From: Desulfobulbaceae bacterium UBA2262
GTDB lineage: Bacteria > Desulfobacterota > Desulfobulbia > Desulfobulbales > Desulfurivibrionaceae
Direction: 5' to 3'
Assembly: GCA_002347185.1 (NCBI GenBank)
Contig: DDXK01000102.1
Location: forward strand, 1-57,038
DNA: 57,038 bases
The stretch's first letter is position 1. Every line of letters begins with the position of its first letter. A program made the position numbers and the translations under genes. This document shows, piece after piece, positions 16,193-21,072 of this stretch. The notes under the pieces were generated by a model. That model was not told the DNA's origin and did not search any database. It saw only the letters and a program-made list of their open reading frames with translations.

Positions 16193-16762
16193 TCACCACT
16201 CCACCACAGATACTTCTTCCGTTGTGGCCGCAGCCTCCAAGGCATCCTCGCGCGCCTGTCTCCTGCCGATAAGCTGGCCGCTCACCACGGAAAACGCCGC
16301 AGCCTTGGCGAGCACGCGGCCGGCTAAATCGGAGACGGCAAGGCCGCGCTCGGATGCCAGGGCGGCCAGCAAGGGGGCGTCCGCAGATGGGTCGACAGAG
16401 AGCGCCTGTGCCTCTTGTACCTGCTGTGGCCAGCTGCTGATCTCGCCGCGCGGGTACATCGAGGTGATCGCCGCCAACGATGCGTCGCAGGCGACATTTA
16501 TTGCCGCCAGGCGCTCGGCTTTGGCCTGGGCAAGCTGCTCCTCAGCAGCGGCCGAAAGTGGCAAAGAACCAACCAGAACAACGCTGGCGCCATCACAGGC
16601 AGGCAAGGTGGCCGGGGCGCCAGCAGGGTCCACCGCGACGAAGTAGCCACTGGGCTGGTATTCGGCCGGCACCTGCCAAACCGTAACAATAGCCTCTTTC
16701 GCCAAGCGCGGCAACTCCTGGGTGTGTGCGCCGACGCTCAAGACATGATCGCTGATCTGCAT
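16193..16762 (-). CDS. tail fibre assembly / chaperone-like protein (DUF4376-like C-terminus)
   Basis: 189 aa; C-terminal pattern SSWPQQVQEAQAL...LAGRVLAKAAAFSVVSGQLIGRRQAREDAL..TEEV resembles phage tail-fibre assembly proteins; last gene before the phage end; its start overlaps the RT stop by 25 nt. Confidence 0.55.
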   Translation of the reverse strand: MQISDHVLSVGAHTQELPRLAKEAIVTVWQVPAEYQPSGYFVAVDPAGAPATLPACDGASVVLVGSLPLSAAAEEQLAQAKAERLAAINVACDASLAAITSMYPRGEISSWPQQVQEAQALSVDPSADAPLLAALASERGLAVSDLAGRVLAKAAAFSVVSGQLIGRRQAREDALEAAATTEEVSVVEW

Positions 16763-17790
16763 GGGACTCCTCCTTTATAATTGATGTCGTTCAGGATGCC
16801 CGCCGTGGTCCGGTGGGCGTTGCAATGCTTCGCATACGCCAGAAAACTATCCACCCGCAACGGGACGGCGGCGGGCGAAACCTGGCCTTCGTCGGTAAGC
16901 CGCGCCAAAGTCCGCAGCTCTCGCCTGGCCCTGGCGATATTCTTCTTCCGCGGCAGGATATGGGTCGGCCAGGTCCTGTAGCCGCAAAAGTCCACCCCCC
17001 GGGCGACCGGGAAGATGGCCGTTTTCGGGTTCAGCGTCAACCCGTGCCGACCGGCAACCTCGCGCATGGCCGCAAGGCTCTCGCTGGCCGCAGTCTTGTT
17101 TGGCGCCACAACCACCGTGTCGTCCATATAGCGGACGTACCCCCGCACCCCCATGCCGTCGTTCAACTCATGGTCAACCTGATTCAGCAGGATATTGGCG
17201 GACAGCTGGCTGGTCAAGGCGCCGACCGGCAGGCCAACCCCGCCATCGTGCCCATAGGCGGCAGAGATCCGGCGCCACAAGGCCAGCGTCTTCTCGCAGG
17301 AGATAACCCGCTCGATGGCGGCAAAAAGCACGTCGTGGCGGATGCTGGCGAAATAGCTCTTGATGTCCGCCTTCAATATATAAGGGCTTGGGTTGTTTCG
17401 GCATGAGGCGCGCAAGAGTGCCTGAACCGCGGCAACCGCCCGCTGCGCTCCCTTCCCGCGCCGACAGGCATAGCTGTGGCAAATAAAGGTTTTCTCGAAA
17501 AGCGGTTCCACAACCCGTACCAGCGCGTGATGAACGATACGATCCGCAAACGGTGGCGCCTGAATATCCCGCTGCTTTGGTTCAAACACCCTAAAGCTTC
17601 TGGCCTTGCCTGGCTGCCAGCTCTCCCACACCAGATGGTTATGGATATTCAGCAGGTTCTCCTCTAGCCGCGTCGAAAATTCCGCCACCTCTCTGCGATA
17701 ACGTTTTCCTTTGCGGGCAGCTAGGTAGGCCTGCCACAGGTTGTCGAAGTCCACAATTCTTGCGTACAGGTTGTTATGCGTCTTTGGCAT
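16738..17790 (-). CDS. DGR reverse transcriptase
   Basis: 350 aa from ATG 17790 (MPKTHNNLYARI...). RT motifs include YMDD (GYVRYMDDTVV) and the DGR-type VGALTSQ ([ILV]GxxxSQ) motif. The ORF-track extension to 18021 is just the TR read in frame. Confidence 0.9.
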   Translation of the reverse strand: MPKTHNNLYARIVDFDNLWQAYLAARKGKRYRREVAEFSTRLEENLLNIHNHLVWESWQPGKARSFRVFEPKQRDIQAPPFADRIVHHALVRVVEPLFEKTFICHSYACRRGKGAQRAVAAVQALLRASCRNNPSPYILKADIKSYFASIRHDVLFAAIERVISCEKTLALWRRISAAYGHDGGVGLPVGALTSQLSANILLNQVDHELNDGMGVRGYVRYMDDTVVVAPNKTAASESLAAMREVAGRHGLTLNPKTAIFPVARGVDFCGYRTWPTHILPRKKNIARARRELRTLARLTDEGQVSPAAVPLRVDSFLAYAKHCNAHRTTAGILNDINYKGGVPCRSAIMS

Positions 17791-17952: not shown

Positions 17953-18074
17953 TTTCGCCAGACGAGCCCCGACGTTCGTGCTCGTGTTCGACGCTGCGTT
18001 GTTGCAATTGACGTTCCACAACCCCGCATTCAGGTCGTTGTTCCAATTGCCACCGACGATCGGGAAATACTCGC
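17953..18074 (-). repeat. DGR template repeat (TR)
   Basis: About 122 bp, non-coding, between avd and RT. Collinear with 18508..18629 at a constant offset of 555. Read in the VR frame it gives EYFPIVGGNWNNDLNAGLWNVNCNNAASNTSTNVGARLAK (10 AAY Asn codons). Ends are +/-3 bp. Confidence 0.9.
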
Positions 18075-18095
18075 GTTAACAGGTTCTCTCCCCCA

Positions 18096-18488
18096 CTACT
18101 GGTGCACTGCTCGTATCCAGCCGCCCACCATTCTGCCTATTTCGTTTACATGCTCCGTCCACACCTGGTACCTGTGGGGGTTGATATACTTGAGGCGCAC
18201 CGACTTGCGAATCCAGATCCGCAGCACCTCTATTTCGACATCAAGATCCTGTAGCGTGGTTTTCTTGTGGTAGCGTTTCCATGCCACCACGGCTAGGCGT
18301 TGAATCTCGGCCAGTGTTCTCCTTATGTCATGGCACAACAGGTGGCGTTCTGCCCTCGAATACTGCTGCAACACCGTGTGGGTGTATGCCTCCAACTCTT
18401 CTATCTTCGCCAGCAGCACCGCGTACGATTCCGGGGGAGCATGGCGTGGCTTGTACCCCCGGCTCTCGCCGGGGGTTTCATTACCCAC
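18096..18488 (-). CDS. avd: DGR accessory variability determinant (Avd-like four-helix-bundle protein)
   Basis: C-terminal part ...IEELEAYTHTVLQQYSRAERHLLCHDIRRTLAEIQRLAVVAWKRYHKK...LRIWIRKSV...HVNEIGRMVGGWIRAV resembles Avd / 23S-IVS-type proteins and sits between VR and TR. Start uncertain: GTG at 18488 or GTG at 18419; the ORF-track start at 18584 overlaps the VR. Confidence 0.7.
   Translation of the reverse strand: MGNETPGESRGYKPRHAPPESYAVLLAKIEELEAYTHTVLQQYSRAERHLLCHDIRRTLAEIQRLAVVAWKRYHKKTTLQDLDVEIEVLRIWIRKSVRLKYINPHRYQVWTEHVNEIGRMVGGWIRAVHQ
18456..18475 (-). other. GC-rich hairpin downstream of VR (candidate DGR homing-enhancer cruciform)
   Basis: On the coding strand: CCCCCGGC GAGA GCCGGGGG, a perfect 8-bp stem with a 4-nt GRNA-type loop, 27 nt past the fibre stop codon. 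Confidence 0.6.
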
Positions 18489-18501
18489 AAGACATGACAC
18501 A

Positions 18502-21072
18502 TTACACCTTCGCCAGACGAGCCCCGACGCTCGTGCTCGCGTCCGACGCCGCGCCGCCGCAACTGACGTTCCACAACCCCGCACTCAGGCCGTTGCTCCA
18601 ACTGCCACCGACGATCGGGAAATACTCGCCAAGGGCAAAATACTGATAATCCGGCGCGGTTGCGTCTGCGTTGCTGGTTGGTCCAGTGTCTCCAATAAAC
18701 ACATCATCGTAGTTGAACCCGGCCCCTACCCCATCCATAAAGGTTGTGGGGTAGATGGTTCCGTCCGCAGCAGCCCGTTTGCGACCGGTATCCACCCAGG
18801 TTTTATTGCCGTTGCGGTCCCACAGGTTAATATAGCCGGTGGTGGGCACGGTCTTCAGACCATCCATCCACTGCCAGACATTCCCCCATAGCCCCACGAT
18901 ACCGCGATAGGTGGCCTGGGCCACATCGGCGGCATCCACATTGGCTGCGCTTGAGGTGCTTACCCGGCCCATTCCGGTTTTCTCCTGGCTGTCCATGGTG
19001 GCGTTTTCCACCAGATACAGCCACTGAATAGCGGACCATTGAAAAATGGACCAGAGCATAAACCCGGTTACCCCACCGGTATTGCGGGCCGCCGCCTCAG
19101 TCTGAAAGGTTGTGAGGCTCTTTGATACTGCAGGCAGTACCCCAGACACTGATTTCAGCTTGGTGCCGTCGGAACTGGCCTGGTATTTGCCGACGTAGAT
19201 CTGATCGATGTCGGCTCCTGCATTGCGGAAAGCCGGGTGGATCTCAAAGCCGGACACCGGCTGATCGCTAACCCACCACGCTTCCTTGCCGGCGTTGACG
19301 CCCGAGGCGATCACCTCCCGCTTATAGTAGAACTTCGGCACCTTGACCATGGCCTGGCCGTCGATGGTCACGTCCTGCATCCCGCCAAAGACCGGGTGGG
19401 CGGCAAAGTAGGCGCTGCCCGGTGCGGCGATGGTGCCGCCGGCCTCGTCCACCCAGACCCAGGTGCCTCCGTCACCGCCGGTGGCAGTGCAGCAGACCCC
19501 GACAATGTTGGCGAACACCTGTTTGGTGGTGATCTTGACTTCCGGCGAATACTCGGACCAGCCCGTGGTCGCGCCCTTATGTCTGGCTCGCAGGAAGTAG
19601 ACCGACTGCCCGGCCGCCAGCACCCCGGCCGGCACCACCTTGCTGAGCAGATTCGCGGCATCCTCGCCAGAATCCCAGTGCGGCAGATCCCAGGCGCCGG
19701 CGGCGGTGCGGATCTGCCACTGGCTGGCGGCATGGGTATCGGTGCCGCCGCTCACCGCGAAGGCCCCGGTTTGCATGGTGGGCTGCTCGACGACATCGAC
19801 GGCGTTGTTGGCAGGGCTCACCAGGGCCGGGGCCTGCACGTAGACGTAGCTGGCCGCGGTGCTGAAGCTGGTGGCGGCCGACCAGGCGGACCAGAGGCCG
19901 GCGACATCCTGCACCCGGGCGCGGAGGTAAAAGGTCGTCCCCTCGGCGAGCACCCCGGCTGGCATGGCGTAGGTAAGCGCAGCGGGCAAATAGCCGGTGT
20001 CGCGCACCAGGCTGGCAAAGGCGGAGTCGAGGGCCACCTGAAACTGCACCGACTGCTGGGCGGTGCCGCCTGGGCTGAAATATCCAGCGATGGCGAGGGT
20101 GGGGGTTTCCATGACCCCGGTCGCCAGATCGGCCGGGGCGGAGACGGTTGGGGCGGAGGGGGCCATGGCCGGGTTGATGTAGCCGCCCAGGCCGGTGGGG
20201 GCGGAAAGCGCCACGATGTGCTGGACCGTCATGTCTTCAGCCGCGACATCGAGCCGCAGGCGGGTCTCTCCTTGAAAGGGGACGATGTACTCATAGTCGG
20301 CCATCCCGGCGGCAATGTCGCCGCCCTGCCGGCGCAGCGACCAGATAACCTCGGTCCAGGCCGTATGGCTGGCATCGCGGAAATAGAGCCGCGCCTCGCC
20401 GCTGTTGAGGCTGCGGCGAACCACCACCGCGCCGCCGGTCTGGTCGTCCTCCAGGATTACCAGGCCGGACAGCCAGATGTTGCCGACGGCCGCCTGGGCG
20501 ACATGGTCGATGCGCGGCATGGAGCAACGGGTCACCACCCCGGCGCCCAGGGTGCGCGGCAGGTTCTGTGAGATCCGGATCCGCTGGGCGCTGAGCTTTT
20601 CGGTCACCAGGACCAGGAAGTCATCCCCGGCGTCGTCCGCCACCACGTAATATTCGCCGGTGCGGATGGCGCTGGTGTCGGCGACATCTATGGAGTCGTC
20701 GCCGCTCACCCCCTGGACGATGGCGACATCCGCCATGTCGATCAGGGTGTAGCCGGGTCGGAACAGCTCGAACTCGATCTTGTTGTCGCGGTAGAGCCAG
20801 TCCAGGCTCACCGCCTGCTGCACGGAGATGGCCGAGGCCTCCTCAAGCGTGCCGGTGATCTCCTCGATGGTGTCGATCCGCGCGCCAAGCGAGGAGGCCA
20901 TGCCCCGAGCCTCCTCCACCTCGTCGGCGAATTGCTTGAGGTAGGTGGTGCGGTTGGCCAGTTGTTTGGCCTGCACGTTGGCGATGCCGTTTTCTCCACC
21001 CAAAACCGGGTCGGTGGTCTCGATCTGGTAGATTCCTTCCTCGTAGACTGAACTCTCTGTCACGTTTGCCAT
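18502..21072 (-). CDS. tail fibre / receptor-binding protein, DGR target (C-terminal CLec/FGE-sulfatase-like fold)
   Basis: 856 aa. It has a P2 gpH-like N-terminus (GIANVQAKQLANRTTYLK), two tandem ~90-aa repeats (..FYLRARVQDVAGLWSAWS.. / ..YFLRARHKGATTGWSEYS..) and a C-terminal WGNVWQWMDG...GGSW motif typical of DGR variable proteins. Confidence 0.85.
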   Translation of the reverse strand: MANVTESSVYEEGIYQIETTDPVLGGENGIANVQAKQLANRTTYLKQFADEVEEARGMASSLGARIDTIEEITGTLEEASAISVQQAVSLDWLYRDNKIEFELFRPGYTLIDMADVAIVQGVSGDDSIDVADTSAIRTGEYYVVADDAGDDFLVLVTEKLSAQRIRISQNLPRTLGAGVVTRCSMPRIDHVAQAAVGNIWLSGLVILEDDQTGGAVVVRRSLNSGEARLYFRDASHTAWTEVIWSLRRQGGDIAAGMADYEYIVPFQGETRLRLDVAAEDMTVQHIVALSAPTGLGGYINPAMAPSAPTVSAPADLATGVMETPTLAIAGYFSPGGTAQQSVQFQVALDSAFASLVRDTGYLPAALTYAMPAGVLAEGTTFYLRARVQDVAGLWSAWSAATSFSTAASYVYVQAPALVSPANNAVDVVEQPTMQTGAFAVSGGTDTHAASQWQIRTAAGAWDLPHWDSGEDAANLLSKVVPAGVLAAGQSVYFLRARHKGATTGWSEYSPEVKITTKQVFANIVGVCCTATGGDGGTWVWVDEAGGTIAAPGSAYFAAHPVFGGMQDVTIDGQAMVKVPKFYYKREVIASGVNAGKEAWWVSDQPVSGFEIHPAFRNAGADIDQIYVGKYQASSDGTKLKSVSGVLPAVSKSLTTFQTEAAARNTGGVTGFMLWSIFQWSAIQWLYLVENATMDSQEKTGMGRVSTSSAANVDAADVAQATYRGIVGLWGNVWQWMDGLKTVPTTGYINLWDRNGNKTWVDTGRKRAAADGTIYPTTFMDGVGAGFNYDDVFIGDTGPTSNADATAPDYQYFALGEYFPIVGGSWSNGLSAGLWNVSCGGAASDASTSVGARLAKV
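18508..18629 (-). repeat. DGR variable repeat (VR)
   Basis: Last ~41 codons of the fibre gene (EYFPIVGGSWSNGLSAGLWNVSCGGAASDASTSVGARLAK). There are 14 mismatches to TR, all at TR adenines. Confidence 0.9.

Follow-up and report, generated by a model that had tools for sequence, protein, structure and literature searches.

Every internal difference between the TR and the VR of the prophage DGR described here is an A→G change. The locus therefore raises the question of whether its reverse transcriptase has an error spectrum of its own, or whether ordinary DGR mutagenesis with a bias shared across the family can yield such an allele. The DNA analysed, referred to below as the window, is a 57,038-nucleotide contig from Desulfobulbaceae bacterium UBA2262. 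We compared its TR/VR pair with those of relatives and weighed the explanations against each other.

The TR/VR pair and its substitutions

A repeat search finds two collinear repeats of 121 nt, 89% identical and offset by 555, at the place where the original prediction had put the TR and the VR. These repeats, and the base at which their homology ends, are as follows.

17954-18074, minus strand: TR, 121 nt, non-coding, with 30 adenines on the coding strand
18509-18629, minus strand: VR, formed by the final 41 codons of the target gene and differing from the TR by 13 A→G changes
17953, minus strand: base just beyond the end of the TR/VR homology, paired with VR position 18508

Read on the coding (minus) strand, each of the 13 internal mismatches pairs an adenine of the TR with a G of the VR, and G→A, C→T and T→C mismatches are all absent from the 121-nt pair. 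Adenine forms 25% of the TR, and with 13 of 13 changes falling on this base the specificity for it greatly exceeds chance expectation. The changed adenines, 13/30 or 43%, compare with 44% in relatives, and the VR is the sole TR-like copy across the 2.85-Mb genome. Within the repeat the codon changes are those listed originally, namely AAT→AGT three times, AAC→AGC and AAC→GGC twice each, and AAC→GAC, GAC→GGC, ACG→GCG and GCA→GCG.

The count itself has to be revised. The original prediction had given 14 changed adenines out of 31, all to G and two of them silent, and we recover 14/31 when the repeat is extended by two bases. The extra change (TR 17953 A, VR 18508 G, AAA→AAG) was rejected as a product of mutagenesis, being the first base outside the homology. 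At this end the VR side reads ...GCGAAGGTGTAA in every relative; on the TR side the base matching 17953 is A or C in relatives, and the sequence is wholly unrelated after it. Since this base lies outside the homology and is fixed in relatives on the VR side, the true count is 13 of 30 with a single silent change, the all-G character being retained. More generally, the base that closes a TR/VR homology on its 3' side should not count as a substitution. The silent change that stands, GCA→GCG, lies in an NAG context (GCA followed by G), in which the changes of relatives go to G in 17 of 20 cases. The common 3' end of the repeats, GTCGGGGCTCGTCTGGCGAA, is GC-rich.

The other parts of the element

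The rest of the element is encoded around the repeats on the same strand.

16738..17790, minus strand: DGR reverse transcriptase (RT) P0003, 350 aa, intact, carrying the signature motif VGALTSQ as well as YMDD
18096..18488, minus strand: Avd, 130 aa, GTG start, from the gene call on the identical contig L076
18455..18476, minus strand: GC-rich hairpin with a 9-bp stem and a GAGA loop (DNA folding, -17.6 kcal/mol, z -3.4)
18502..21072, minus strand: DGR target gene, encoding the 856-aa prophage tail-fibre protein P0002, assigned from its position after a P2-type tail module

RT P0003 matches Pfam RVT_1 (E 1.6e-21), and its best solved relative is a 328-aa chain named 'Reverse transcriptase' (8ub7, E 1.8e-53), which we take to be BPP-1 bRT. 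In the alignment with bRT, VGALTSQ (residues 189-195) and YMDD (221-224) are matched by IGSLTSQ and YMDD, V189 lies opposite I181 of bRT, and R74 is invariant. R74 and the first residue of the [I/V/L]GxxxSQ motif promote adenine mutagenesis (PMC7826257).

The avd gene adjoins the TR and is 94.8% identical at the nucleotide level to that of the relative L077; its product matches the bAvd profile PF22296 (E 2.2e-25) over positions 2-106 of 107. The hairpin begins 26 nt past the stop of the target gene, within the 5' end of avd, and with the GC-rich repeat boundary it represents a candidate feature for target recognition. The target gene directly follows the tube, tape measure, GpU, GpD, gp25, baseplate J and Tail_P2_I genes of the tail module. 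P0002 has 261 relatives of full length, which share the ending ...GARLAKV and are hypervariable at the residues that match Asn codons of the TR. In BPP-1-type DGRs the VR closes a target gene for a ligand-binding domain of the C-type lectin fold; for P0002 the sole sequence match to a solved chain is a weak one (5vf4, E 3e-4, residues 605-686). With RT, bAvd, TR, C-terminal VR and downstream hairpin all present and intact, the element is a canonical BPP-1-type DGR.

Substitution spectra of relatives and the origin of the all-G allele

The original prediction had measured the all-G pattern against three equally likely outcomes, (1/3)^14, a null that is wrong for this family. In 57 TR/VR pairs from RT relatives A→G accounts for 361 changes (53%), A→T for 193 (29%) and A→C for 122 (18%). 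A survey published in 2012 likewise found a G-favouring DGR spectrum (PMC3521204), and for BPP-1 bRT in E. coli misincorporation of C makes up 59.3% of errors (PMC12875486). The probability of 13/13 G is 2.9e-4 with the pooled family spectrum and 2.8e-4 with a context-aware one. Alleles nevertheless differ by more than binomial sampling (57 pairs, chi2 103.6, df 56, p 1e-4), and a beta-binomial fit, which assumes that this over-dispersion also holds for the present element, gives 5e-3, so that an all-G allele would be expected roughly once in 200. Measured against the uniform one-third null, G-rich VR alleles look three to four orders of magnitude more surprising than they are; an all-G allele is rare, yet expected somewhere among thousands of DGRs.

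Some observations count against sampling or selection as the origin of the allele. One is its improbability, at ~3e-4 under the pooled and context-aware models and more so beside the four nearest RT relatives (70-75% identity; 17 G, 14 C and 24 T, or 31% G), against which alone it is an extreme outlier (0.31^13 = 2e-7). Another is the RT itself, which is nearly identical to that of L077 over the first 100 residues and diverges from it over residues 100-350, leaving room for a private change of spectrum.

A search of 5.8 billion proteins returned no RT relative more than 75% identical, and a search with the exact RT for a second allele of this element returned only L076, which is 100% identical to the window over 10,053 bases and is probably the same sample re-assembled, not an independent one. 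In the source run, from a hydrocarbon metagenome, a single contig covers the VR, with no other letters; contigs drop rare variants, and as the four runs were compared as contigs only, this coverage does not serve as an argument for clonality. L077-like relatives, not the present element, occur in the remaining three runs, with several VR unitigs among them. The original prediction had named A→C and A→T changes at comparable frequency in other alleles of the element as the observation that would make the all-G allele an accident of sampling or selection: the closest relatives, L077/L078, have such changes, their repeats carrying 5 G, 4 C and 5 T, and for the exact element no second allele was found. 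The TR is 97% (96.7%) identical to those of L077/L078 and 87-90% identical to those of L080-L084, with adenines kept at the same positions. In 97 relatives with a VR of equal length, Tyr, His, Phe, Cys, Ile and other residues stand at the Asn codons, and changed Asn codons become Ser, Asp or Gly in only 46%. A further candidate, P0020, had looked at the protein level like a second all-G allele with a similar VR; its DNA has 9 G, 3 C and 2 T, two of the shared residues are TR-encoded, and the apparent convergence with the VR of the window was dropped.

How far, then, does the pattern call for an enzyme of its own? An RT/Avd pair, or host dNTP pools, that put C opposite template A almost exclusively would fit 13/13 G readily, with a likelihood of 0.25 at p(G)=0.9 against 3e-4 at p(G)=0.53. 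The lack of close RT relatives and the mosaic relation to L077 after about residue 100 are compatible with such a skew, as is the pooled G fraction of groups of near-identical RTs, which ranges from 0.30 to 0.74, and an influence of host or RT was already suspected in the 2012 survey (PMC3521204). We nonetheless regard an element-specific skew as unlikely, for the G fraction differs greatly from allele to allele under near-identical RTs. The VR of L045 has 9/9 G and that of its sister L046, whose RT protein is 96% identical, has 8 G, 1 C and 5 T; similarly, L004 has 11/14 G and L056, with an RT 99% identical to that of L004, 6/12. In addition, G is scarce among the changes of the nearest clade, RT P0003 has R74 and the VGALTSQ motif in common with relatives, and the case for a skew comes from one allele with 13 sites. 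Host G+C, as a proxy for dNTP pools, was dropped as a driver, locus G+C showing no correlation with the G fraction (rho 0.004); locus G+C shows weak trends with the C fraction (+0.31) and the T fraction (-0.32). Of the skewed misincorporation proposed originally, what holds is a G bias of the family as a whole, and we found no evidence for a special skew of the present RT/Avd. Under such a skew the element would be a transition-only A→G diversifier, whose AAY codons sample only Asn, Ser, Asp and Gly. It is quite improbable that the RT-Avd pair is a natural diversifier of this kind, inserting dCTP opposite A nearly exclusively. Were it one, it would represent a distinct and narrower mode of DGR diversification, offer a ready-made transition-only targeted mutator relevant to the engineering of DGR-based mutagenesis, and imply that lineages differ in how their RT error spectra are tuned.

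Two further routes were considered originally. Deamination of A to I in the TR transcript before reverse transcription, with inosine read as G, would yield A→G changes only, but nothing else speaks for it, and we consider it very improbable. A profile search for the cytidine/adenosine-deaminase fold (PF00383) had no match on the 57-kb contig (C10); five matches lie on other contigs of the genome, and matches also occur in 12 of 14 control genomes. The search for ADAR-type domains (PF02137) had no match here or in any control genome and is hence uninformative. Relatives with a 97% identical TR and a 95% identical avd show all three types of substitution, A→T and A→C included, and DGR RTs alone suffice for adenine mutagenesis (PMC6182149). 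If the repeats had drifted apart through ordinary mutation with a transition bias, or the TR had undergone G→A hypermutation, this would account for the changes all being transitions. Such non-DGR divergence is scarcely credible given that all 13 fall on TR adenines, a quarter of the bases, that C↔T and G→A changes are absent, and that relatives conserve the TR adenines while their VR sites vary freely.

We therefore think it likely that the all-G allele is a rare draw from a G-favouring spectrum, made by an ordinary DGR with no new mechanism, and we infer that sampling or selection, rather than a special enzyme, produced it. In such a scheme the DGR, which occupies the tail-fibre end of its Mu-head/P2-tail prophage, rewrites the fibre tip: the RT-Avd complex would copy TR RNA into cDNA with misincorporation opposite template adenines, and the mutated cDNA would replace the VR. 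In the enzyme family C opposite A, giving A→G, is the most frequent error and accounts for roughly half of the changes or more; single VR alleles scatter widely about the family mean, and the one allele captured in this metagenome-assembled genome would come from the tail of the biased spectrum. Selection favouring small polar residues (Ser, Gly, Asp, Asn) at the tip of the fibre may have contributed. On this sampling account the locus is one more prophage tail-fibre DGR, whose G-only allele fits the literature since 2012 and is of little biological import.

Comparison with known systems

The BPP-1 DGR (mtd VR1, avd/bbp7, TR, brt) has the same order of target-VR, avd, TR and RT, a VR at the C terminus of a phage tail-fibre protein, an Avd of the bAvd family and an RT with R74, [I/V/L]GxxxSQ and YMDD. 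Its TR is likewise built on AAY codons, and its GC-rich repeat 3' end is likewise followed by a GC hairpin with a 4-nt loop; the hairpin at 18455..18476 is similar to the hairpin/cruciform that BPP-1 has downstream of its VR. The preference of bRT for C misincorporation in E. coli (PMC12875486) is a further likeness. The two systems differ in that RT P0003 is only 36% identical to bRT, in the 856-aa fibre on a P2-type baseplate as against the 381-aa Mtd of a podovirus, and in the absence of A→T and A→C from the VR allele sampled here.

L045 is similar in having a single fixed VR allele with A→G only in an otherwise ordinary DGR. It belongs to another clade and host, and its 96%-identical sister RT gave T and C changes; RT P0003 has no such sister. 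The closest systems are L077/L078 (ENA assemblies) and L080-L084 (Logan/ENA), which share the tail module, an 855-aa fibre 83-93% identical over the C-terminal 257 residues, the same Avd and TR (87-97% nucleotide identity) and a conserved 189-aa gene after the RT. They differ in their RTs, which are 70-75% identical to RT P0003 (in L077, beyond the near-identical first 100 residues), and in their VR alleles, which carry the full palette of A→G, A→C and A→T changes.

The retroelement and its surroundings

The element is a textbook diversity-generating retroelement (DGR) with the following parts.

18502-21072, minus strand: DGR target gene, 856 aa, with the variable region (VR) at its end
18509-18629, minus strand: VR, 121 nt, end of the target gene, located by repeat search
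17954-18074, minus strand: template repeat (TR), 121 nt, non-coding, 555 bases downstream of the VR and 89% identical to it
Between TR and VR, minus strand: bAvd-family gene (PF22296, E 2.2e-25)
After the TR, minus strand: intact reverse transcriptase (RT), 350 aa (RVT_1, E 1.6e-21)
Beginning 26 nt past the target stop codon, minus strand: hairpin with a 9-bp GC stem and a GAGA loop

There are no further TR-like copies in the genome. The RT has its top solved relative in chain 8ub7, a 328-aa reverse transcriptase (E 1.8e-53), and alignment to BPP-1 bRT shows that R74 and YMDD are kept, with VGALTSQ as the DGR signature motif. Upstream of the target lies a P2-type tail module (tube, tape measure, GpU, GpD, gp25, baseplate J and Tail_P2_I); the target gene therefore encodes a prophage tail fibre. 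A 189-aa gene (16193-16762, minus strand) shares 25 nt with the end of the RT gene at its 3' side and is kept at the same position in the closest relatives, the metagenomic prophage DGRs L077 and L080-L084. Its precomputed Pfam label is HI1402_helical (PF27318), with no match in our hmmscan at E <= 0.001; its product could serve as a chaperone for the fibre or as an accessory factor of the DGR.

Adenine changes between TR and VR

Within the repeat, 13 of 13 mismatches are TR A to VR G on the coding strand. The original prediction, of 14 changes at 31 adenines, is reproduced by a two-base extension of the repeat, but the 14th change is not mutagenic and the real tally is 13 of 30 TR adenines (43%, compared with 44% in relatives). 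At this position (AAA→AAG), L077, L080, L081 and L083 have GCGAAAGAC in the TR and GCGAAGGTG in the VR, the same as the window; more distant relatives again have GCGAAGGTGTAA in the VR, with C in the TR and unrelated sequence beyond. By this comparison, AAA→AAG is the first base beyond the end of homology and not a mutagenesis product. In BPP-1, cDNA synthesis begins within the TR, at G117, and therefore always leaves the outermost 3' bases of the TR uncopied (PMC6182149). The codon changes listed earlier were matched exactly by codon comparison of TR and VR, although the two silent changes reduce to one, GCA→GCG, with AAA→AAG outside the homology. The observation stands, subject to two corrections.

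Ordinary TR/VR drift, and with it the suggestion of some other transition-biased route, is excluded, as every change falls on a TR adenine conserved in relatives and none on another base. The proposed A-to-I deamination found no backing when host and element were searched for deaminases: the contig has no deaminase-fold gene, and the five in the genome lie elsewhere, as in most control genomes.

The substitution spectrum in relatives

We tabulated the spectrum at TR adenines in 57 distinct TR/VR pairs. They come from relatives of the RT, drawn from collections of genomes and viral contigs, and from the closest target-gene relatives. The pooled counts are 361 A→G (53%), 193 A→T (29%) and 122 A→C (18%), and the equal-thirds null assumed earlier gives way to less extreme values.

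Probability of 13/13 G under different spectra
Uniform thirds: 6e-7
Pooled spectrum: 2.9e-4
Context-aware spectrum: 2.8e-4
High-GC loci only: 9e-4
Beta-binomial fitted to relatives: 5e-3

In these pairs, G makes up 66% of outcomes at the second A of AAC, 17 of 20 changes in NAG contexts and 25% in GAC. The NAG outcome agrees with findings on bRT, which is reported to misincorporate almost no G in that context (PMC12875486), and TR adenines before G are changed in 0-23%, below the overall 44%. Five DPANN/Nanoarchaeota DGR loci (L021, L023, L024, L026 and L035) gave 77 G, 2 C and 41 T, A→C being almost absent compared with its overall share of 18%; this seems to be a real error spectrum particular to the clade.

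The allele-to-allele spread exceeds binomial sampling (chi2 103.6, df 56, p 1e-4), and locus G+C bore no relation to the G fraction among the relatives' loci. For the 57 pairs the beta-binomial expects 0.7 alleles with G changes only, and L045 (9/9) is the one observed; several are expected given the thousands of DGRs in databases.

The only other contig with the exact RT, 100% identical to the window over 10 kb, is probably a second assembly of the same data. Sequencing runs were compared as assembled contigs. A mine drainage metagenome (X5) contains two 146-nt unitigs, of depth 105 and 55, that carry VR flanks and align to window 17954-18074 (TR) and 18500-18639 (VR) with 15 and 22 differences, suggesting that two or more VR alleles of an L077-like relative coexist in that sample. 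The probable source sample (X1) contains a 3.9-kb contig at depth 124, compared with ~10 for the window element, that matches only short pieces of the fibre C-terminal region (window 18498-19386). This points to another phage in that sample, more abundant than the present one and carrying a related DGR target.

Enzyme-specific skew or rare outcome

A special proneness of the window's own RT/Avd to A→G seems unlikely to us. The allele is a 2e-7 outlier against the four nearest elements alone, which are G-poor, with 17 G against 14 C and 24 T, and no RT closer than 75% identity exists among 5.8 billion proteins. However, L077/L078, with a TR 96.7% and an avd 94.8% identical to the window, show 5 G, 4 C and 5 T; the all-G L045 has a sister, L046, with a 96% identical RT and 8 G, 1 C and 5 T; and the RTs of L004 (11/14 G) and L056 (6/12 G) are 99% identical. 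Both residues shown to promote adenine mutagenesis (PMC7826257) are unaltered in the window RT, and 97 relatives with equal VR length carry Tyr, His, Phe, Cys and others at Asn codons, with Ser, Asp or Gly in only 46% of those changed. The L077 RT is itself only 75% identical overall (window 16738-17790, minus strand, against L077:5780-6832), with 2 differences in the first 100 residues and a diverged remainder, while TR and avd of this pair are 95-97% identical in nucleotides; the window RT is mosaic relative to that of L077, which suggests a recombination breakpoint within the RT gene.

The element is an ordinary DGR, and the best reading of its G-only allele is that a known process, biased towards G and over-dispersed, here gave a rare result. 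Equally high variability has been reported across 15 closely related Bacteroides RTs (PMC3521204), and BPP-1 bRT, when reconstituted in E. coli, misincorporates C in 59.3% of its errors, with a broader spectrum only in AAC and AC contexts (PMC12875486).
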